A stretch of DNA of 60,000 nt from Lytechinus pictus. Lineage: Eukaryota. The translations under genes and the position numbers were made by a program. Under the pieces are notes generated by a model. The model did not search any database. It worked only from the letters and a program-made list of their open reading frames with translations, and was not told the DNA's origin. Shown piece after piece: positions 10,356 through 37,652 of this stretch. The stretch lies in the NCBI RefSeq assembly GCF_037042905.1, contig NC_087251.1:9426001-9486000 (forward strand), in the 5' to 3' direction. How positions within the stretch are numbered: the stretch's first letter is position 1; every line of letters begins with the position of its first letter.

Positions 10356-10641
10356 TTAATCTGTTTTAGATTTAGTTCTACCGGAAACAAGTCGATAGCA
10401 CAAACGACAACAAAATCTTAAAGAGAAAAATACAAGTAATGATATAATACAAAGTAACGCGAAGAGAAATGCCAGGACATCCAACATATAGAATTGAATG
10501 AAAGAAAGTTCTGCAGCGGGCGATCTGAGATAATCTCCACCATATCTTATCACGTGGTCTACCCAGAATGCGGCACGTTCTTTTCCAGACATAAAGTCGT
10601 TTTTTATGATAGATGAGACTTCTTTGGCCACCTGTGCATAA
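10356..10641 (-). CDS. UDP-glucuronosyltransferase, last coding exon (transmembrane anchor + dilysine-type ER tail)
   Basis: acag acceptor at 10642; AAFWVDHVIRYGGDYLRSPAAELSFIQFYMLDV, hydrophobic helix, ends KSKTD*. Confidence 0.92.
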
Positions 10642-11635
10642 CTGTCAATCAAAAGAATAAAAACAAATAATATTGATAAATAAAAGCTTTAGAACAGACA
10701 TCCCAACCTCCATCCATTAAAAAGACATGTCATAATCTTAATATGTTGTCTCCCAAACTTACTCCATGCAATAACAAGATATTTTATTTTGGTATCTCAG
10801 TTTCCTTGATATACTTGTTCGTTTAAAAACCTCCATATTTATGTCGTCTTGGATAACCAGTTGTGTTTTTTAATCCTATCAATAGTTGTTGGGAAACCAT
10901 TTTATAATCATAGCTTGTATATTTTGTTTTGTTTACTTTATTTACCAAATCACCTATCTTTGTTTAGATAACACTGATATTAAGTTATCACTTTGCCACA
11001 TTCCTTTTTTGGGGGGTGGGGGAGGATCAGTGGGTAGGTTTTTTAATTATTATTATGGTTATTTTGTCTTTTTTGTGTAACTAACTTGTGTTTATGTGAT
11101 TTGCAATCACCTAATAATCATTTGTAAATTTTGTGATTTATTTCAATTTATAATAAAATAAAATAAATATTATAAATTTAAAAAAAAGTAAAAAAAATAA
11201 AAAAAAAATAAAAAAAAAGATATTTTATTTTTGCGGAATTAGGCTATATCTATGCAATATTCAATAAAAACAGAAAAATTAAGCGAATTAGAAATGTAAA
11301 GGATCGCTGAAATCAACCAATATTGTGGTATATTATATAGGCCTACACATGTCCAATGGAAAAATATCAAAGTCAGCCAAGATAGAAAAGGGGGGTTCAT
11401 CCGATGAAAATTTGATAAGAAAAAAAATTCACCAAAAATATAAAAATTAGGTCTTTTTGTAGAAAAAAAAATTGACAAGCAAAAAAATATGTTTTCAAAA
11501 AATCTGAGGGGGTTTGACTCTCTGTAACCCCCTTCCCCTGCATACGCGCCTTGTTAGAAAAATGTTCATCTCAGGGAGGAACGCTCTAAATGGATATAAA
11601 ATAATAATGTAAGCCTATACTGATGGCTAAATTAC

Positions 11636-11855
11636 CTTGGGTTATTGATGACTTCATGAAGGGTCTCATAAATGACGTCAGCGCTGAGTGAGTGTTTGTC
11701 GAGACTTCTTCCCATACCTCTTGCTTCGACTCTTGCTCCAACATCGTATTGGTCAGCAATGAAAGGTATAATGACCATAGGTACGCCATGACTACAAGCC
11801 TCTTGAAACCCGTTGTTACCGCCGTGAGTTATGATCACACGTAGCTTTGGGTGAC
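11636..11855 (-). CDS. UDP-glucuronosyltransferase, coding exon 3 (UGT signature)
   Basis: 220-bp AG/GT-bounded exon: HPKLRVIITHGGNNGFQEACSHGVPMVIIPFIADQ; phase compatible with neighbours. Confidence 0.93.
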
Positions 11856-12482
11856 CTAATATCGTGCGAAGCAGGTTTCAAAAACTTGTTGTTACATTTA
11901 GATTATGATTTAATAAATAATGTCTCCAGCTTAACTTAATTAGTGATGTATAAGCACTACATCCTATTATTTTAATCCTTCCCTACAGAAGAAAAAAGCT
12001 TTGTTATTAAACTTGACTCATAAATAAATGTCTTGTTTTAATAGTATTTTGTTCATTTCTCAATCGGGTATATTGCATGAAACAGAACTACCCGTGAGTA
12101 TTGGGGCACTCAACTTTAAGCCCTAATATAATTACATATATACGCAACCAGAAAAAACCCAAAACAGAAAGGTGTCGAAAAAGCTAAAAATAACGAAAAG
12201 GTTTTGTATCTGTATGTATTTTGTTTATTTTGCATGATTTTCAAGTAGTGAAAAAGAAGGGAAAGGGCGAAGACCAAATTTCATAAAGAAAAGATTTTGG
12301 TGATTTATCCCTTATTCGATTGAGGTAAATATTAAGTTACTAATACGTTGTCCCCCACCCCCCCCCCCCCCCCCTCGCCAAAGAAAAATAATAAAATGAA
12401 AATAAACTTTATTTCAGCAGCGAGGGCTTGAAATGTAGATACTGGGCAGACAGTGAAAATAGACTTGACACTTCACGCTTAA

Positions 12483-13073
12483 AGGTCAATTCCACCCCAG
12501 AAAAAAAAAGTTAATTTGAATCAAAAAAGAAAAAATCCAACAAACACAACGAAAATTTTATCAAAATCGGATGTGACGTATAAGAAGTCATGACATTTTT
12601 AAAGTTTCTCTTATTTTTCACACAACGGTTATACCATTATGCACTATTCAGTGATATAGCAAATGAATGAGTCTATGTCACTCACCATTTCTTTTCTTCT
12701 ATTATTGGTTGAATTACAATAACTTTTCACATATTTGACAATAACGGTCCTCTCGATTGAATCACAAAATGTTTAATCAATGGTAATTCCACGCGTTCAG
12801 GGAGAAATAAAACTTTGTTTTCACATGACAATGAGCTAAAACATTTCATATTTCATAATAGCGAAATAGCAAGTGGGTAATGTCATCGGCCCAGACAGGA
12901 TTTGGAAATAAACTGTTTTGTGAAATTAAGCGAAAGTTTAAAATGCCTTAACTCTATATACTTAACATCTTATTTTGATGAATTTTTCAATGTTAAGCGT
13001 AATTGCGTATCCCTTTTTTGTTTATTTTTGTCTTTTTATTCAAATAAAATTTTTGTGGAGGCGGACTTGCTCT
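12483..13073. mobile_element. Kolobok-like non-autonomous element in a UGT intron
   Basis: TTAA on both sides; termini AGGTCAATTCCACCCC / GGCGGACTTGCTCT; related to 22926-23528. Confidence 0.65.
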
Positions 13074-13166
13074 TTAAGCTATTACAAGGAGCAATCCTTT
13101 GCAACATAATGAGAATTGGTATATGAAGAAGCTGAAGAAGCGCGTGGAGAGGTGTCTTTAACTCAC

Positions 13167-13395
13167 CGAGCAGATCATTCTGCGGAACCCATGGCAATGA
13201 TTTTACATTAGATGGTAACTCCTTCTTTGGAAGTTCTTTCAACTGCCAAATAACTTTCTGCGGTAATCTTTGGAAAGCCTCAGCAAACAAGTCGACAAAC
13301 TCTGGCTCAAACTTTGTTACAGATGAAAAGTATGTACCAAGGGTGAACACGATAATGCCTTCGTCTCCAGAACTATTCACGAACTCCTCTAAATT
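13167..13395 (-). CDS. UDP-glucuronosyltransferase, coding exon 2
   Basis: aacag|NLEEFVNSSGDEGIIVFTLGT...WVPQNDLL(G)|gtgagt. Confidence 0.93.
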
Positions 13396-14172
13396 CTGTT
13401 CACAAGTAGAAAAAATAATTACAGATTGATACGAAATTATTATCATTTTGATAATGAATTACATGAATATATCCATTAAAAAATATGTGTTTGACAAGAC
13501 GGCGCGCCGCGGCGCAGCGGGGGTGGGGTACCGCCCCTGTGGTTTTCAAGTAGTTGTCAAAGTTCTCAGCATGCCTATATAGAACGATTCTATTGAAACG
13601 CTCAACTTTCCCGTTACCCTCAGGGTAATGGAGTTGCATGGGATCAAACAAAGAGAAAAAAGGTGATGATACGATGGCGAAAAGGAAAGAATAAGAGTAG
13701 AAAAGAAAGAGGTCAGGGCCATGTATCCTGATCAATTAAGAAAACTATATCTTCACCTTCAGATCGTCCTTATCCCCCCCCCCCCCCCACACACACCTCC
13801 TAATAGAATATCATATAGGACCGTTATTATATTAGCTCGACATTTCCATGACTGTCAGGGCCCTGGGAACGATTTTTTTTTTAACTGGGGGTGCTGATGT
13901 AACTTTGACAAGCAAAAAAAAAGGGGGTTTTCACTACAAAATGTAGATCATAGTATTTCTGGCGCGGATAAATTTGACAAGCAAAAAAAAAATAAATAAA
14001 AAGGTTTTCACTACAAAATATTGGTCATTTTGCTTACATGGGGGGGGGGGGGGGTGCTGCCTATATATGGAAAATAATACACGTATAGCACCCCCAGGGA
14101 AAATCTTGGGGAGCATGCTGGTGACAGCTGTCAGTGACCATAATGAAATACCTGATTGCATGCTCGTATTAC

Positions 14173-15070
14173 CTGATCAAGCTTTGCTGGCGGTGTCACT
14201 GTCAGACCCCCTCCTATCAAAATAATATTAGGTGCGATAGGAAAGGGAAATTCCGATGAAGTATGAATGTTGATAAGATGCAAATCGAAATATTTGTGCC
14301 AATTAAGTCCATAAGCTTAGGTCGAACTCGTTCTGATCAAAACCCATGTTCCTTGCAACTTTTTCATACGGTGGTATAGCTATCTCACTTGCTAAAAAGA
14401 GTACCGAACTGAAGAAAAAGACGTTATTGACCCTCTGCAAGAAGGTCATTCTGTTGGTGTATCCAGATGATATCTCTGGTTGAAAGGCAAGATTAAAATA
14501 AGATCCACTATACAATAGCAGGGTTCCATCAGGAATGTTTGGTGTCATTGATATCATCTTAATGTGTTTGCTGTAATTGAGAGTTCGTTCAAGGACATGT
14601 CTCATCACCATGCCACAAATCCAAGCAGGATCCACTATTATCGCATCTATTCCTTCCAGTTGTTTCATGATGGTGACGTCACGTAGGACACCTTCGCAAT
14701 CTTCCGCCATCGACTCGCTAAGTAGAGAAAACAACTCCAGCAACTGAGTTTCTTTACTTTTAAATACGAATGTGTTGGCCTGGAAAAACATTTGACGGAC
14801 ATCCTCCGTCGATCTGTTCCGATGATCGAAGATGAGGAAGTGTAGTTTGGAATACCTCGGATCCTGAGCCCTATGTTCATATGCCCTACTGATGAGAACA
14901 GTCACGTTATGCCCTTTGTCAACTAATCCCTGGGCCACGGCCGCTCCAGCGAAAAAATGGCTTCCCTCTCCGTATATAGGGGAGACCAAGATATTGAAAC
15001 TAGAGACCGTCTGCCAAACTATTGAGAAGAATACCACTGTGTAACAGCAGCAAATCGATAGTCGATACAT
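14173..15070 (-). pseudogene. UDP-glucuronosyltransferase, coding exon 1, frameshifted near 14305-14318
   Basis: Signal peptide, GEGSH...LVDKGHNVTVL, MTFLQRVNN; stop at 14303-14305, while the +1 frame continues DLHLINIHTSSEFPFPIAPNIILIGGGLTVTPPAKLDQ to a CAG|gtaat donor at 14172. Confidence 0.85.
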
Positions 15071-16807
15071 TCTCTAATATCTGTAAATTCGCATTCAATC
15101 TAAATAGATTTCTCAATCGAGGCTCACAGTAGCCAATGCTTTCAACAGAATAAAAGGGGGTAAGAAAAGTTTAACTTGTTCAATGCCGATTTTTCAATGA
15201 GCCCATTCGCAGTTAAACGCCGACGAGATATATATCCGTCGGTATCTCGTCGGTACAATACGGAAGACTCGTCTTAGACTTTACATACGTGCACTCTCAG
15301 GCTGACGTCCATCGATGAGTCATCGGATTTGTCAGACAATGCAAATTGACTATTGTGTTTATGTAATCAGTTTATTCAGTCAGCATTTAAGTCTACATTA
15401 CCCTTCCAAGGAGCAATTAAGGATCCTATGTCTGCAACTTCTCATCATTAATCCCGACCTTTCGTTGCAAGAACGCGAACGCTTATTTACGACGTTAGTT
15501 GATTTTGGAAGAGACTTTTGGGCCCGTCGTACATGGTCTTAAAACTCTGTCCTGCAATGCAAATTGTGTGACATGAGATTTTTTTTTCGTTTCGCATTAT
15601 CTGGAACAGAAACATTGAATTTGCGTTTCGTGTGCAAATTCTGGTTGCTACTATGGTAACAGCGATATATCCGATTTAGGACGACTTTCCAAATCCACAT
15701 TTGGTCCTCCCAGAGCTCGAGAGGCCGCCCCGGGGGGGGGGGCCCACTTTCATTGAAGAGTGGATACCAGGCGCAACAACGCGTAAAAAGGGAAAGAGTG
15801 GGTAAGTACGTTACGTATAGGCCTATGTATAACGTTATAAAGGTGTCAAAAACGATGATTAAAATACTGAAAAAAGGGATATATTTCCAATACTTGTAGG
15901 GTTTCACAAGCCAAATAATTGTTAAAAGATGCATTTTCATAATCTGGAAAAGACTTGCTTCCCTTGTTTAGGGTACTTTTCGAAACCCCATGGTCGTGCC
16001 TGGTATCCACTCATCAATGGAAGTGGTCCCCCCGGAATTTGAATCTATAACCCCCCATTTCTGGGGAAAGTAAAACATAATACCCTTTACATCGTGTGCT
16101 AGAGGCGTATCGTTTGTGTAGAAGGAGTGAACAAAAGAAACAAAAGAAACCCGCATTTTCAAACGTATTGTGTGTACATGTGCGAAATGTGTTTGGCTTG
16201 AGAGGTGATCTGACCCATGGAATCAATTGCCAGTCTTCCACCAATAATCCACATTAAATGCATTATCGATTCGATGGACTGTAATGTTGTTTCATCATGA
16301 CTTTATTCAAGTTCAAAGACACTGATATACAATATATACATAAAGAGACCAGGTCCATCGTTTCCATTCCAAACAAATGGCAGGTCAGTACATGGATTAC
16401 AAGACAAGTAATACGTATATATACCAATATAGAGAATTATTTAGAGTAACATAAATGCAGGAAAATAATTAGTAAAAGCTGTCGTTGATATCACGTTGGA
16501 AAAAAAAAAACACTCAATCAGTCTTCTAAATCAGAGCTGGATATGTAAATGGAATTAATCAACTACTGCATACAACCTGAAATGTACAGACAACATTACG
16601 AGAGGTGTTTTGTACCCAATTTCAACTACGGTATCTTCTTAATTATTATCATTATATATACGGCTGTGATCATTATATGTTTTTGTGTATTCAAATCAAC
16701 TTAATTAGCTACTGACATCACAAAGTTATGAGAGTAATATTAGTAAAGTACATTTGCCTTGCGCAAAAAACATAGTGAGGCAAATTATCTTGGGCCTTTG
16801 GGGATGG

Positions 16808-19774
16808 TTACGGGTCCAAGTGACGTACCTCCCCCCAGGTTCGCTCTTTTCTTGCGTAGAATATCGAAAAAGAGGAGAGTATGGCGAGTTTAGAAAGAGT
16901 ATGGAAAAATTCTGTTGGTCGGACTTTTGAGCTTGTTGTTCTAAGGAGTTTTTTAAGGCGGTGGTCTACTAGGCCCCTTGCCCCGACTTCTACGGCGTAG
17001 AATGACACCATGTACCCCTTTTCTTTGATATCCCTGACGATTGACTCATACTTTGTGACTTTCCTTTGGTGTGCATTATCGATGTTGGTTTCAAATGGGA
17101 TTGTTAATTCGGTGATAATTATCTCTTTTTGATCTTCCCGTAAAATTACTAGATCTTGGCGCAAAGTGGTTGTGAAAATGTGGGGTGGTACGGTGCCCCC
17201 GGCGATTGATTGCCCTTCTAAATCAGTATAAATATTCCCGTTAGTCAGATTTTCAAGAAATGTTTTATGCATGAACCTCAAAATGTTATTATGACGCCAC
17301 TCATATCTCTCAAGGAAGACTGGGCAGTTTGAGAGTATATGATGGAGGGTGCCTGTGGTACCAGGGCAGAATATACATTTATCATTTAGGCGTTTACCCC
17401 AGGTATGCAAGTTTGTATAAGAGGGTAAAGAGTCAATACATGCATTAACAACAAAACTTAGAACTCGTTTTGGGAGATTATACATAATAGATTTCCAAGT
17501 TAGGTTTTCATTTTGCAGTAATAACAAGGAGGCAAATTTTCCCTGGACCAAGAGTGGCTCCACTCTATCAGACCAATATTTAACTGTGTCTTCCTCTATT
17601 ATCTTCTTAACGGTTTTCTTCACAGTATGCCATGGACTAGTCTCAACATTGATAGCATTTTCAACTCTACGATGGGTTTCGTTACATTGTACGACAGTTG
17701 ATTGTTTACGTGACCATTGTGACTCTCTTTCAATAGCAGAATCAATCGCTTGATTAACTACTGAATCCGCTTTAACTCTCGATCTGCTAAAAGCGGTAGA
17801 TTGGGATTGGCGGTAAATGTCGGATAGTCTCGGGATATTGAGACCTTGAGGTAAGTGGACCATTGCAATGTTGGCACCTCGAGAAGGGATACCTAACCAA
17901 TTTTTCAGGTATTTATCGGTTAGCACGTCGAATTTATCTAAGTGGGTTTTTTGTAATGTATGGACTATGAGCAAAAAGCGGATAGAATTGAGTACGTATC
18001 GTGAGTAAATGGCAACTTTAAACTCAGGACGTACGGATAATTCGTCTACTCTTTGGATTCTGTCAGCAATTTCCTTATGGACAAAATCATATACTTCAGC
18101 TGGTTTGCCACTGAAACAAATATTTGATCCCAAAAATTTGTGCGGCTTTTCTCTGATTGAACGAATATTTTCTGTGCCGATTGAGAACTTGATTTCTTTC
18201 GGGGTACCTCCACAAATTGACAGACTGCAACATTTGGCAGGTTTTAATTTAAGTCCCATCGACGATGTGTGTGAATGTAACTGATCAATTATCTTTTGAT
18301 GTTGTACTTTATTATTGGTTATCAAATTAAAATCGTCGGCGTACGGGGTTGTTATGATCCTGGTGCCATTCAGGTCATATCCCAGACTATCTTTCATTTG
18401 ACCGAGGTATTCAATTAGGGGGTTAAAACATGACAAGAAGATGATAGGTGAAAGGGGATCTCCCTGGAATACACCTTTTTTTAACATAAATGTTTCAGAT
18501 GACCATTTATTGCCTTTTACATTACCTTGCAATCTACCATACAGATTACGAATGTACACTGACAGATTATTGGGCACATGGAATCGACGTAGGGAATGGG
18601 AAATTAGTTCGTGAGATACACTACCAAAAGCGTCAGCTAAGTCAAAGAACGTGACATGTACAGTGCGTTTCTAAGTTTTACTATGTGACATTATTTCATG
18701 TAAGACTTGATTGTGTTCCACGCAACCATTGATACCATTAATAAATGCCTTCTGAACGTTATGGTCAATGTAATTATTTGTAGTCAAGTAGTCAACTAAA
18801 CGATTTGCTAGTAATTGGTGGAAAACTTTACTTACACAAGAAGTTAACGAGATCATTCTGAAATTTTCTGGTACATTGGTATCCCCGCCCTTGTGTATGA
18901 GCGTTACTTGACAACGGGACCAACTCTCAGGGGGGTCGTGTGTTTCGAGAAGAAGTTGAGAAAATAGGGTGGCCAAAAAATGATGAACACACGGAGTATT
19001 TTTTAACAGACCATACATAAGGCCGTCTGGCCCGGGAGCAGAAGATGCCTTCTTGGCATATAATACCAATTTCACTTGCTTAGGAGTAACCGGGGTCAAA
19101 TCGAAATCATGGTTTGATTCATTAACATCAATGTATATTTAGGGAAACCAAATACATCTATTAAAGTCAATATGCTCTGTTTGAGAATATTTTCGTGGGT
19201 AGTACTCATCCGCGATTTCTTTCGAAAAGGAAATGGTGGGCGTAGTTCTGTTAAAGTCTCCGTTACATACTTGTTTCGAAAAGTTCCAAAAGTCATTTCT
19301 GTATCTTTTTTCTTGGTAAGCTGCGGTCTTTTCGGCTTTCCTCTTGTCAGATCGCTTTTTCAGAAAAGATACTGCTTTAACGGCAGATCGGAAGTTTTTC
19401 CTGTCCTCGTCCGTGGCTTCTTTGCTGAATGCTTTTCGGCGAAGAAAGTTTTTTCTTTTCCGCGCATCGGCGAGGGTTTTTGGTTCATGCTCGACATATT
19501 CTTGGGAGTTGTTTTCTTGAACGAAGTCAGGTTGCAAAGCGAAGTAATCGAAGACGGTACGACTGAAAGAATCGGCGGCCTCCTTTGGGGTCAGGATACG
19601 ATGGTTTAAGTCCTCGTGAATGGGCGTTATCCGTTCTTTCAATTCATTGTTCTTTTGCTGCCATTCATTTCTCACATACTGCGGAATGATGAAGCGGGTG
19701 AAAGCTTCTGAATGGGCGAGGTGAACAATGAGTAATGAACAAAAGCAGAGATGCATTATACCGTGGAAACCCAT
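16808..19774 (-). mobile_element. Non-LTR retrotransposon of the RLE (R2-group, HERO-like) type; single RT-RLE ORF with two premature stops
   Basis: RT motifs PGPDG, FRMISL, QKAF, DLADAFGSVSH, GVFQGDPLSP, YADD; CCHC knuckle CIFC...HILSNC; RLE motifs RQDLV...ITELTIPF...RKVTKY...VEVGARG. ORFs 19139-19816, 18671-19099 and 16808-18577 share one frame, separated by TAA (19139-19141) and TAG (18671-18673). Confidence 0.92.
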
Positions 19775-20278
19775 TGGCTTACGATTGGTGATCACGTGGT
19801 CAGTGGGTGGCGCCAACTTTGATAGCGGCTGAAAAGCCAGCGGATTGTAGACGATCAGCTAGTGGGGAAGGTCCCCGAGTCAACGCCTTGGACGCACGTT
19901 ATTTACGTTACAGTATTCGGATGAGAAATTCAAAATAATATGACATCGGGTTCTCCAATAACGGCTGATAATATTTTAATATCAACGACTGCTAGAAATA
20001 CTGAGTCACTCACCAAAACGATGATTACATTGACGATGATGGTGGACGCGGCCAAATCCGGAATTTTAAGCAAAATTTGCAGCGGTGAAAAAACCTTTTC
20101 CGAGATTGCCGTTACGCCCTCAAATGCCTATATCTAAGCCTTAATTTAGTAAATTTTTCCTCACTCAATATGTAGGCCCTACTCGATTTGTTTGAAAAAT
20201 TGAACCACTTTCTTATCCATGTCATATTCTATTTTAGGTCTTGCATTTCGAATATCTCCAGCCATCAGTCGTAATAAG

Positions 20279-20730
20279 CCAGTTCGTAGTTCCTTTCTGC
20301 GCATGATCAAAAGATTCTACGCATGATCAGAGGAAGGTCATTTGTACTAATTAAGTGACATGGTGGTTCAAAATCTAATGAGATAAATTAAGCACCAACT
20401 TTGATGTCTTGATTATTCATATATTCTTTTGAATTGTGGTTTTCATTTACATCCACAAAAAACAACAATGCGTCCACAAACGACTGGTATTTCACAGTTT
20501 GCCAAGAACATTGTGCAACATGCTATGATATGCATTCAAAGTAGGAATGCAACAAATACCTACATAAAGTGTTCATTGGTGTGCTGTTCTAGTCACCTGG
20601 TCTATTTATTTTTTTCATCCTGCTATGTAAGGCAAGCTTACGTAATATCTTGCTTTGAAATCTGCCTATCATAATGAAAGAAATGAAAGGTCATTTGACC
20701 AAAATTGTCCATGAAGTAACTACGAACTGG
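20279..20730. mobile_element. MITE of uncertain superfamily
   Basis: Inverted repeat CCAGTTCGTAGTT / AACTACGAACTGG. Confidence 0.6.
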
Positions 20731-22327
20731 TCTATACAAAATTGTATGGCGCGCGGGTGTCGCGGGGAAGAATTTTGCACACGAAAAGCAGATCTGTAGG
20801 GCATGTAACCCCCCTGTAACACAAATCTTAGCATTGATTGTAGAGCAGTTTTCTACGTTTGATTGTATTGACTATAATGTACAATCAATTTTAAAAATCA
20901 AGTGTATGATTAAGCGTCAACTTTTGTGTTAGGGGACCCTAATATTAGCGTCCGTGAGGATTGCGAAAGGTGGCAAATTAACGCTCGCCAAAACGCTACT
21001 TCCTTCCCGCCGATCATTACGAAACGAAACCTATATCATTGTCCAACGTTATCAGATTTCAAGTGTTTTTTTTTCAGATTTAGGATATTTTATTTCTCAT
21101 GCAAGTTAAGCTGTAAAATAGAATCGTTGAAGAGTAACAGGGAATAACTCGTAATCATAATAATCAAAATTCCAATTATGTACCCTTTCAAGACAGATTA
21201 TTTTGTAATGAAAATAGAATGTATATAGGTCCAGCTTAGAAATAGAGAAGGGATGTGATGGGGGCACATGGATGGGGGAGATAACTCGATGAGCAAAAAC
21301 TATGAAAAATCTTCGACTTGAATCCCCTTATTTTTTTTCTTCAAAATTCAAGCCCAAGCGAGAATCAAACGCTTTACCATACCCTTGAACTATATTATGT
21401 GCATTATAAAACGTCATTCACCTCTTCATACGATAACTAAAACAGATCAATGTAGCGCATAAATAAAACTCCAAACCGTTAGACCAATCAAGACCCCTGT
21501 TACATCTGGAAATCGGCGGCCCGGGCTGGCCCGAGTCCAGTTGCAATCCACCGTGCGTTAGAAAACTTTACTCCTCAAAAATATTCTCCCAAACACTAGA
21601 AAAAAGGTGGAAAAGAAAAGGAAATGAAGAAATAAAACAGAGTAAACTATTTTTTGATATGTTGTCAATATATGTCATAAAATATTTTTCGTATTAAAAA
21701 TATTTAAAATATTTCAACATTTAAAATGATTGATTGTTATTGTGTGTAAAATTCAGAATTATCAAGATTGGATGGATTATAATCAACTTGAAAAGGGTGG
21801 GTAATTTGGGATCTTCCTTATACATGAATAATGCGAGCGCAAAGCGCGAGCAGAAACTTTTTATATACGTTTTGAACTGATCGAAAAGGTACCCGTTAAG
21901 GACTGCTTGCACTATAGTCATGAAGACGTTACATATTTCAACAATCAAAATAATGCTAGTGCGAAGCGCGAGCTGAAATTTTTTGACATTTCTTCATAAA
22001 GAATGGAAAATTTCAATCAATTCTTGTAATCGTGAATAGGATAGTTATTTAACTATAATTTATTGATGCGAGCAAGAAGAGCGAGCGGAAAAAAATCGAG
22101 ATTTATAGACCTAAAAACTCGGGACACTATATAGCATTCGTGTCTTGTAAATCATGAAAATAATGGGTATAGGGGATCTCCCTACATTAATAATGCGAGC
22201 ACAAAGCGCGAGCAGAAAAATTCTGATATTGTGATCTGAAATTCGATAGGCTCATAAATATCTAAATAGAGAACAAGTTGAGTATCTGAATAAACATACG
22301 TACGCGTGTTTCAGATTCAGACCTATA

Positions 22328-34110: not shown

Positions 34111-34410
34111 AAACCCACAATCCTAGATTCGATCTTACCTACCGGTAATGTTGCCAAACTGTGAAAGTTTATTTCATGGAATTTGACATACCGGTATTTT
34201 GTAAAGTAATCCATTGAGATTTAGATTGCATTCAGTGTTGTAAAGTCAAGATTTAAATGAACTAATGGTCTGGTCATTAAAAGTGTTCCATGACTTTGTG
34301 AAGTGAATAATATGATGTTATCTCCTTGAAAATTATGAAAGTTTGCATTTCTATTACATAAAAATACTGTATGTAAAATACAGCATATAATATCTTCTTT
34401 TTCAGATTTG

Positions 34411-36090
34411 ATGAAAGGACAAGTTATAGGTATGGCCAGTTCTGGATCAGCTGTCAGGTATCCAGGATTTCCAGACAGCATGCGTAGGACAGCTCCTGCC
34501 GGTCATTCCCGCATACCAGTGCCGCAGACTCAAAGACCTGATGCCAACCGTCATGTGAGTGCTCCGCAGCGTTCAAGGCTCCTTGCCATGCAGGATGCCT
34601 ACCAGAAGAAGCTGATGAAAGAAAAGGAAGAAAAAATGTTAGCCATTTACAACAAGCAGCAAGATCAGGCTCTTCAGAAAGTTACCCGCCATGGAAGTAA
34701 AGCTGGTACAGATGAAGGGCAAGGTATTGTGAGAGATTTCTTTAGGGAGCGGAAGCAAATGGAACAATCAAAACATTCAGCTGAAATCATATCAAGAGAT
34801 ATGCATTTCCAAAAGAAACTCCAAGAGAGAAAGAATACAAGTGGTCTCTCAAATACTAATGATGCAAGCAATATTCAAAACAGACAAGCAAAGAAAATTT
34901 CTGATCTTCAGGAGCAAAAACTGTATGAAGAGAGGAAACAACAAGAAATGCTAAATTATAAGAGACAGCAGCAACAGAATCAGATGCAACAGCAACAAAA
35001 ACCTGCCAAAGGTACGATGAGATCCAATCCTCTTGCTCCCATCAAACGTGATTCTGTAAAGATGAAGGTGAATGGCCCTCCATCACCCAGCTATGAAGTC
35101 TATGAAACATCTGGTAATCTTGCATATGATGAAGATGATCATCCAATGAAACCACTATCAAAACCTCAGAAGGTTTCGCATCGTTCCAAGCAAAGAATTG
35201 ATTATGAACATTCTTCACCAAACAATATGAACACTACACATGATTTGCCACCTCAGCCAGCTAAACATTTGAATCGCAAGAAGGTAGCCCCTCCTATCTC
35301 AAAGGAGAAATCTCCAATGAGAGCAAAGAAAGGCAAGAAAAGGGATTTTCAGAAGTGGCAAGAAGAACAAGACTTAGAGAGGCAGGAACGTTTGAAGAAA
35401 TATGAGGATACACACTCTCAACCAAATAATGACTTTACTGTAGACTATGACAGGGAGTTAAAAGATGAGATGGAGTCTGCCAAGAACAGAAGAAAGAAGG
35501 AATATGATGATATGATGGCAAAAGAGCGTGAACTAGAAGCCATGATTGCCAAACATAAACATGATCTTGCCAGAATGTCAATGGATGATGACAGTGATGA
35601 TGAAATGGACTCCTTTCCAGCCCAAAAGAGCAGGCAGCCTGTGAAAAAGCAAACAAAATCCCAGAGTAAAGCCACTTCCCATTATGAGGATGAAGAATCA
35701 TTTACTTATCGTAATGATGGCGATGACTATGAGAGCAGAGCAGGTGAATTTAAATCTAGACAGAAACAGTTATCAAAACCAAAGCGCAAAGCACTGCCAA
35801 GGGACCCAGACCCTGAACCATCCCCTCCACCACCTGCTCCCATGTCACATGATACCAGTCTATATGATCAAGCTATTGATGATGGAGGAGAAGTTATGGA
35901 TTTGAATCTAGTTGAATGTTCAGTATGTGGGAGAAGGTTTGCAGCTGACAGACTGTCCAAGCATAAGTCTGTATGTAAGAATGCATCCAAGAAGAAAAGG
36001 AAGGTATTTGACACTACTCAACATAGGACTCAGGGGACAGAACTTGCTCAATATGTTAAGAAAGGTCAGCACTTGAAGAATGATCCTCCG
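34411..36090 (+). CDS. ZC2HC1C: Zinc finger C2HC domain-containing protein 1C-like, large coding exon
   Basis: ttcag acceptor at 34405, ATG 34411, 560 codons, coiled-coil/low-complexity body, then CSVCGRRFAADRLSKHKSVC...KKRKVFD; donor CCG|gtgagt. Confidence 0.85.
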
Positions 36091-37400
36091 GTGAGTAATA
36101 ACACTCTAGGGGTGAAGTAATTTCATCTATTGAGCATGCTAAAGTTCTTGTGTCATTAGATGTTTTTGAAAATATGTACAATATTCAGTAAAACCATTGG
36201 CAAGAATTACCTTCTGAATTTGATCAGGAGCCATTTCATAAAGATTTACAATAATGGTAACTTTGCAATTATGGCACCTACTAGGAAATTAAGGCTCAAC
36301 AGCCAATCACAATCAATGTTTTGATAGTACAAATAATGGCAAATTACCATACTTGTAAGTCTTTACAAAACAGGCCTAGAGGTCCCAGTTCTATTGCTTG
36401 GTTTTATAAAATGGTGATGTGGATCCCGTTATTTTGATTGATCATTCTTATCTCCAAAATCATGACTGAACATGCATGGTTGGAATGTAGGATATTTTGC
36501 TTTGTGTATGAAAGGGTGTCTCACAAGTAGTTTTTGTAAAGAACATGTATCACACAATGTAAAGTTAAAGTTGGAAAGTAGGATATCTTCTTTTCATAAA
36601 AACTGATTATGAGGTGAATTAAACATGGCCTACATGTACATGTATTTACACAATTTGTTTAATATTTACAGACTTTACCTAAGAAATATTGATTTAAAAA
36701 AATCAATATGAAAATTACCTTTCATTTGTTATGTAAATGTAAAATACTGTACAACTAGGGCAAAAGTATTTCATAATTTTGTAAAATTCTAAATGGCTCA
36801 ATCTAACAAACTTTTGTGATTTAAAAGTGGTATTATGGTGGTGATTTTTACCTGATTGCTAAGAAAGCGTAAATACTTTTAAGCAAGCAATGAAAGGACC
36901 GACAAATTAAGGTCCATCCCGATGGACCTGGTAATGAGAATAAACATTACCACGGTACGGGTGCACCAAGTGGGAATCAAACTCAGATGACTGGAATCTG
37001 AAACCCCCCCTCTACCGACTAAGCTATCACGCCTCCTTAACTGCAATGAATAACTTTCAGTAATTGACTTCTTAATTAATAATTTTAAGAAATATACACA
37101 AAATTTAGTATTACTGAATTTGAATATTACTGATTTTAATTTAATTTTAAATCAAATTTATTGAACGTAGTTTCCTTAAAACTAGTTCATTTTCCTGACA
37201 AATGCTTGCTTTTATTCTGGTCCTGTGCATTCTGTAATGATCATCATACATGTAGGTTTAATTTCAAATAGACTTTTCTCATTGTTGATGGTCAAAGATC
37301 AAATGCATTCATATGTTGGTGTGTGGGTCCCCTTCCCCCTAGAGGATTGATAGACATCTTATGTCATATTTGCTTGTTTTATGTTTGTTCTCTGCTGCAG

Positions 37401-37652
37401 GCAAAGCCATCAAATTGGAAACGTAAACATGAGGACTTTGTACGATCAATACGAGATGCTCGTGAGACACAGGCATACGTTGCTAAAGGGGGCAAGCTAT
37501 CTGATCTTCCTCCACCTCCCCCATCAGAAAACCCAGACTACAAACAATGCCCCTATTGTGCACGCAAGTTTAATCAAACTGCAGCTGAAAGGCATATTCC
37601 TCATTGCAAAAATACCAAGAGTAGACCCAAGCCACCCCCTCGCAAGAAATAA
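37401..37652 (+). CDS. ZC2HC1C: ZC2HC1C-like, terminal coding exon
   Basis: tgcag|AKPSNWKRKHEDFVRSIR...PPPPSENPDYKQCPYCARKFNQTAAERHIPHC; phase 0 join; TAA at 37650-37652. Confidence 0.88.
   Translation, partial: AKPSNWKRKHEDFVRSIRDARETQAYVAKGGKLSDLPPPPPSENPDYKQCPYCARKFNQTAAERHIPHCKNTKSRPKPPPRKK

Follow-up and report, generated by a model that had tools for sequence, protein, structure and literature searches.

In the usual picture a LINE protein folds in the cytosol, captures RNA of its own and then passes into the nucleus. Two groups of non-LTR elements with a restriction-like endonuclease (RLE) are closest to the element described here. [quoted passage not shown] R2 proteins carry one to three N-terminal zinc fingers, insert into rDNA and are translated without a required methionine (PMC13580325, in part).

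The window analysed here, 60,000 nucleotides of Lytechinus pictus contig NC_087251.1, contains a whole RLE-type element, the features of which are collected in Table 1. An empty-site joint from 16286 to 20128 is visible in read runs X21 (35 reads), X8 and X5 among the four runs examined over 14250-20700, with the bases AT between the joint ends in X8 and X5. The boundaries of the element are set by this joint and its two intervening bases, the empty site having two bases (AT) more than the filled site at 16286/20128. No target duplication is seen at the element ends 16287 and 20127, either in the joint or in the flanks. The insertion therefore seemingly removed two target bases without duplicating any, which resembles the small target deletion that accompanies insertion by R2Bm. 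The flanks and the read runs show that the element sits within a very high-copy repeat; the flanking high-copy repeats, at about 15330-16286 and 20128-20800, have inverted ends and are probably MITE-like. Many relatives of the element end in (TA)n, and the one empty site that was resolved is that in the window. There is no rRNA match within 15500-21500 and there are no terminal direct repeats on the element. Against Rfam, with E up to 5, the same interval gave three matches, all below the gathering score and none to a ribozyme, an absence that is weak by itself.

Table 1. Positions in the window of the retrotransposon and its parts
Feature	Position	Strand	Basis
Whole RLE-type non-LTR retrotransposon, 3,841 bp	16287..20127	-	Empty-site joint in reads
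Inverted ends of the flanking high-copy repeats	15619-15638/20774-20793; 20274-20295/20714-20735; 15737-15777/15993-16033		
5' untranslated region, 353 nt	19775..20127	-	Empty-site joint and flanks
Conserved motif, about 40 nt from the 5' end	20070..20087	-	Candidate internal promoter
Predicted ER signal peptide, cleavage after S-E-A	19703..19774	-	Sequence rule, comparison with P0100
Helical N-terminal domain, residues 25-232	19079..19702	-	Homologous to L1 ORF2p region
Premature stop TAA, codon 212	19139..19141	-	ORF translation
Premature stop TAG, codon 368	18671..18673	-	ORF translation
Reverse transcriptase core, RVT_1; YADD at 18343	18122..18898	-	Pfam
CCHC zinc knuckle (zf-RVT)	17324..17377	-	Pfam and alignment
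Restriction-like endonuclease; D, E, K motifs at 17158, 17113, 17062	16811..17200	-	
Conserved 3' UTR stem, internal loop and hairpin	16347..16386	-	Pattern and folds
AATAAA signal and 3' end	16287..16307	-	Relatives often end AATAAAG(ATG)AT(TA)n

About 1.2 kb downstream of the element, and on its strand, begins a UDP-glucuronosyltransferase (UGT) gene with a signal peptide of its own (10356-15073, minus strand). A host gene at 34339-37652 on the plus strand encodes a C2HC zinc finger (PF13913), and we take it to be ZC2HC1-like. Over the neighbouring UGT exon the X1 contig differs from the window at 8 of about 1,230 letters. Contig depths are, by the mapping tool's own warning, not copy numbers: in X1 the UGT exon has a depth of 4.3, the 3' three-quarters of the ORF 49-166 and the 5' end 0-3, a fall that fits 5'-truncated LINE copies, and in X8, where the UGT exon is about 96% alike, the exon has 56 and the 5' end 409-692. 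In X21 depth over the element is low and first mates are mostly of the minus strand; reads on the UGT exon are of mixed direction.

The reading frame is open from 19858 and runs through 988 codons to the stop at 16808-16810 on the minus strand. The window copy is a dead copy of an RLE-type LINE; at the second of its premature stops (codon 368) contigs of other copies have sense codons, and its endonuclease has Q-D where the family has P-D. RVT_1 and zf-RVT both match within the single ORF, which ends with the CCHC knuckle and a PD-(D/E)xK endonuclease. By Pfam the APE family is absent from 27 of 27 members, no family matches the N-terminal part of the ORF and no N-terminal zinc finger or Myb match is found. 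Three distant RLE relatives (P0081, P0082 and P0083) show extra domains in precomputed Pfam matches (PF00443 with PF13423; PF05029). The 5' UTR contains two short out-of-frame upstream ORFs, starting at ATG 20030 and ATG 19946, and a conserved motif that is possibly an internal promoter; the motif is matched in 10 of the 18 loci with at least 250 nt upstream, by a pattern drawn after viewing the sequences and counted without a shuffle control. In the 3' UTR an outer stem, a UGC-containing internal loop and a variable hairpin stand 25-45 nt before AATAAA. This pattern, defined post hoc, occurs in 25 of 35 3' ends against a mean of 0.9 and a maximum of 5 in 500 shuffles, and the structure is a candidate recognition element for the RT. 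It is common to the window, L007, L013, L022, L031, L081 and others.

As originally predicted, the minus strand from the ATG at 19774 translates as MGFHGIMHLCFCSLLIVHLAHSEAFTRF, in which a hydrophobic core, uncharged and with a KD of 2.9 over eight residues, precedes an S-E-A cleavage-like site. The first ATG, which had been taken as the start, is in frame and open, but the second, at 19756, is the likelier start, since it has A at -3 (C at ATG 19774) and is shared with P0100, which starts at the equivalent position. P0100, a Diadema antillarum protein, is 80% identical and the closest relative that has a start; its leader ends in T-E-A, followed by F-T-R. On this comparison S-E-A is preferred as the predicted cleavage site, the first site found by our hand-made rule lying two residues before it. 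The likelier arrangement would therefore be an 18-residue predicted signal (19756-19703) with the mature chain beginning at F25; with a start at ATG 19774 the leader would be residues 1-24. The window copy has no positively charged n-region, and among 35 leaders 43% are net positive. An origin as a host exon or a gene-model artefact was rejected, the leader being in frame and 353 nt inside the 5' end of the element.

Among ATG-started open peptides in the window, 58 of 305 carry a hydrophobic core and 23 of 305 a core with a cleavage-type site, so the leader of a single copy proves little. This frequency (19% for the core) would suit a leader without any targeting role, either a chance hydrophobic stretch or a helix of some other function, as would the lack of conservation in the leader sequence itself and the existence of several branches without a leader. 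Such a reading seems very improbable in the light of the start context, the codon-position signals, the placement of the cleavage site and the low confidence with which models pack the leader, all of which are set out below.

At the DNA level, 82 loci were found, of which 28 and the window reach the start of the domain. Of 14 long-ORF loci, 13 have a purine at -3 of the first in-frame ATG, as do 354 of 728 other ATGs; this first ATG is preceded by an in-frame stop 1-24 codons upstream in 13 of the 14, the distance being 70 codons in the other. Across 15 loci the frequency of T at codon position 2 is 0.49 in the leaders, against 0.27 and 0.33, and is flat in the UTRs. In three related elements, which form three non-independent pairs, changes in the leader core are mainly at third positions (27/58 against 19/116), and indels in the leader are of 3 nt only, with the UTR flat. 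The ATG context, the codon-position signals and the 3-nt indels together make it very likely that the leader is translated and selected as protein.

Homologue searches returned at least 97 and at least 150 homologues among the matches listed. A leader-free domain profile anchored 131 of the 248 sequences examined, and 139 members starting with Met, locus translations included, formed 97 clusters at 60% identity, outgroup and leaderless members among them. A hydrophobic core is present at the start in 50 of the 97 clusters and at 11 of 654 internal methionines of the same proteins. For a core with a cleavage-type site, by a hand-made rule, the counts are 43 of 97 and 7 of 654 (Fisher p = 2e-35; p = 4e-15 against the ATGs of the window); in four of these 43 the site is 8-9 residues inside the folded domain and is probably false. 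A held-out search gave 12 new clusters, seven with a core, three with core and site and none of the window's type. Of 22 further proteins, five reach the domain start and all five have a hydrophobic leader; three of these come from genomes of Lytechinus and Branchiostoma, and the other two are duplicates of members already known. A leader-free homologue search produced only three proteins, none with an intact start. Relatives occur in sea urchins, in lancelets and in many marine assemblies, those named being from Diadema antillarum, Lytechinus and Branchiostoma. Clusters in the ESM Atlas were eukaryotic only, no relative was found among 24 candidate stretches of viral contigs, and 253 stretches of prokaryotic genomes gave two loci. 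L081, a whole element of the clade found in a Bacteroidales MAG on a contig of 4,473 bp, is most likely eukaryotic contamination. Unlike the single copy in the window, the family data place the leader beyond chance, and the predicted signal peptide on the RT-endonuclease is a real, clade-wide feature. Conservation of the segment, on which the original prediction had made its interpretation depend, holds across a large clade in character and not in sequence, and the alternative then raised, that the segment is untranslated or coincidental, is disfavoured by the family counts, the start context and the codon-level constraint.

In an RT tree of 93 rows, from which eight duplicate or long-branch rows were left out, all hydrophobic leaders fall within one clade of 83 rows (support 100/99), with a core in none of the 10 rows outside it. 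Sorted by eye, the leaders are of three designs, all with membrane-type hydrophobicity. In type A, which occurs in several deep branches and includes the window, the signal stands directly before the domain. In type B the signal is followed by a linker and a second hydrophobic segment, and in 15 of 21 such proteins a Met precedes this segment, 11-22 residues before the domain start. Type C has a short hydrophobic leader of 11-19 residues without a cleavage site. In a few branches the leaders are hydrophilic (for example P0041, P0044, P0045, P0048, P0364, P0373 and P0389), and loss of the leader with long ORFs kept is seen in several branches. Intact members without the segment, proposed at the outset as evidence against it, do therefore exist, in that some have a short uncleaved leader or none, but a large clade keeps one; the signal peptide would thus not be essential in every branch.

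Double leaders with a second Met are found in P0011, P0105, P0332, P0333, P0343, P0352, P0357, L024, L033 and L061, where this Met is often followed by P, stands in a strong context and could yield targeted and untargeted isoforms. The second Met bears on the possibility that the signal limits dosage, most of the protein passing to the ER to be degraded or secreted as waste and activity being confined to protein that evades SRP or is started at a second AUG, which would limit nuclease damage. Two isoforms could arise in this way from the 15 type B proteins; the second Met is in a strong context in all three such loci seen, the upstream ORFs of the 5' UTR would fit, and dual targeting through leaky signals is known (PMC4981915, in part). 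The window's type, however, has no second start, disposal needs no conserved cleavage site and the short uncleaved leaders of the sister branches fit a waste route poorly, so that we consider this explanation unlikely.

In 22 of 30 leaders of 17-34 residues that have a core, a (-3,-1) site lies 0-3 residues before the domain start, while shuffled leaders average 8.5 and never exceed 17 (none of 2000 reaching 22), the core and site rule and the 0-3 residue window both having been set after viewing the sequences. The test is not repeatable on the 12 held-out clusters, since they include no leader of the window's type (n = 0). The boundary sites point to selection for cleavage by signal peptidase in the window's type. 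Their excess tells against an uncleaved anchor, in which the leader would insert N-terminus first and tether a cytosolic enzyme to the ER or nuclear envelope. We regard such an anchor as improbable, even though most members have K/R after the leader, 37% of 35 leaders carry more positive charge after the core than before it, and the type C leaders, being without a site, look anchor-like.

The body of the enzyme gives further context for the leader. Residues 25-232 contain 2 Cys, 38 K/R and 32 D/E and no C2H2 pattern, in keeping with the predicted absence of a C2H2 finger after the leader. The charged helical region that had been described there is present and lacks a zinc finger, but it is not novel, as it aligns with L1 ORF2p. 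The family profile aligns from position 74 onward with human L1 ORF2p from residue 303, and in the AlphaFold model the match to L1 ORF2p (Z 33-34) starts at about residue 20 of the model and about residue 250 of ORF2p. The aligned part of L1 is presumably its linker and tower. Since the model alignments begin there, the predicted cleavage point is exactly the start of the folded protein. In the AlphaFold models of P0003 (mean pLDDT 93) and P0344 the means are above 91, whereas the leader of P0003 is a helix at 62 and 55 and the leader blocks of P0344 are at 48, 40, 31 and 49; in these two models the leader is not part of the predicted folded body. A structural role for the second helix of double leaders is without support at a pLDDT of 49. 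Ten catalytic and zinc residues of the RT, knuckle and nuclease are invariant in 12 of 12 signal-bearing full-length type A proteins, so the enzyme must still reach nuclear DNA together with its RNA.

No marks of a life in the lumen accompany the signal. Sequons in signal-bearing members number 135 against 132.9 expected, with ratios of 1.02 for cleavable (21 proteins), 1.07 for double (5), 0.73 for short (19) and 1.26 for lost (4) leaders and 0.97 for the outgroup (8). This chance level gives no sign of luminal life, and it would also be expected if luminal protein were waste that does not matter, as in the dosage explanation above. The cysteine content is unremarkable. True secretion, in which the protein or RNP would leave the cell and mobilise the element in other cells or hosts, could draw on the signal-peptide anatomy of the window's type, with neither a retention signal nor a membrane segment, and on the wide spread across sea urchins, lancelets and many marine assemblies. 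The missing sequon signature and unremarkable cysteines speak against it, as does the failure to find an uptake or fusion module by Pfam, and the RNA would not accompany the protein; to our knowledge RNA does not pass the translocon along with a protein. We judge secretion to be quite improbable. Of the destinations first proposed for the protein, the ER or membranes are thus a well-founded suggestion, the segment being conserved in character and chance being disfavoured, whereas full secretion gained no positive support.

The reading that we tentatively favour is that the signal brings the RNA to the ER during translation while the enzyme stays in, or returns to, the cytosol. SRP would capture the predicted signal as the protein is made and thereby dock the element's RNA, still under translation, on the membrane of the ER or nuclear envelope. 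Signal peptidase would cut after S-E-A, translocation of the mature chain would be aborted and the enzyme would stay in or slip back to the cytosol, then bind its own RNA and insert it. The benefit may be that the pause and the membrane site make it easier for the element to have its own RNA captured close to the nucleus. Sister branches would reach the same end with the second hydrophobic segment as a stop-transfer or with a short uncleaved anchor, and types B and C would, from their sequences, leave the enzyme facing the cytosol. Docking with aborted translocation is favoured because the leaders are of membrane type in all designs, because types B and C would face the cytosol, and because Ty1 and HBV provide precedents.

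Against the docking reading, nothing visible stops translocation in type A. No downstream transmembrane segment is apparent, with no 19-mer above a KD of 1.5 in the 8 of 21 proteins inspected, and there is no conserved second Met, the next Met being 14-334 residues into the domain. The 2A motif D(V/I)ExNPGP is absent from the leader and N-terminal domain in all of 172 members, which rules out release by canonical StopGo; one 2A match, at residues ~548-573 of P0117, is beyond the part that aligns to the family. The basic clusters of the helical domain, at about residues 105-114 and 139-147, might stall translocation, yet they are equally strong in leaderless outgroups. That passage of the RT-endonuclease through the ER translocon is a required step, with the signal cleaved and the enzyme re-emerging at the nuclear envelope on its own RNA or, at the extreme, an RNP being exported and spreading from cell to cell, is on balance somewhat doubtful. 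If true, this would be the first LINE whose life cycle includes a stage of membrane trafficking.

A clade that keeps a predicted ER signal on its RT-endonuclease contradicts the picture of folding in the cytosol, and is odd for an enzyme of nuclear DNA. The elements of this clade are, judging from their leaders, likely to be translated on the internal membranes of the cell. Where and how a single-ORF LINE protein picks its own RNA and reaches the nucleus is thereby made a testable question, for which the cleavable, double, short and lost leaders are natural controls within the clade. The clade offers many intact ORFs of about 990 residues in which the AUG start is defined, and compact R2-like enzymes without DNA-binding fingers are of interest as tools for RNA-templated insertion. 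Annotation pipelines would misfile such proteins as secreted host proteins.

No literature report of such a leader was found, in a search that did not extend to subscription journals or Repbase Reports, and the accessible parts of PMC5678591, PMC7650587, PMC10294476, PMC3708506 and PMC4981915 do not describe a signal peptide in an RLE element. The HERO elements HERO-1_SP, HERO-1_BF and HEROTn have the same ORF plan and come from the same hosts as the named relatives here, and from descriptions and hosts it is plausible that the clade belongs to HERO; a signal peptide is unmentioned in the available HERO texts, while the element here carries a predicted one. R2 gives the best sequence matches (E 2e-76), sharing RT, CCHC knuckle and RLE, and R2Tg (9DOU/9NL3) is the best match to the predicted fold (Z 37.9, rmsd 3.5, 777 aligned), with R2Bm (8GH6) at Z 36.0, rmsd 3.4 and 755 aligned. 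Unlike R2, the present element has no zinc finger and no rDNA association; it starts at a strong-context AUG, bears a hydrophobic leader and has a polyadenylation-type signal. Human L1 ORF2p is alike in the helical region but has an APE endonuclease and no RLE; the leader takes the place of the APE domain in L1 and of the zinc fingers in R2.

Outside the RLE elements, LINEs with APE and 2A sequences come from the same host group (PMC3708506, in part), the present clade differing in having no 2A. The 2A-like signal sequences of sea urchins, also from this host group, combine an N-terminal signal with a protein that works in the cytosol as well (PMC4981915, in part). In HBV the signal peptide of the precore protein p25/p22 is cleaved and part of the product returns to the cytosol (PMC9300162, in part), which offers a model for the proposed route, although precore is a small viral capsid-related protein of unrelated sequence with a known secreted form. 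The RNA of a retrotransposon is translated with SRP at the ER, with return of the protein to the cytosol, in the case of Ty1 Gag (Doh et al, 2014; PMC3945221, in part). Ty1 is, however, an LTR element, the protein concerned is that of the capsid and the authors' model removes cis preference, whereas here it is the RT-nuclease itself that bears a classical-looking N-terminal signal.
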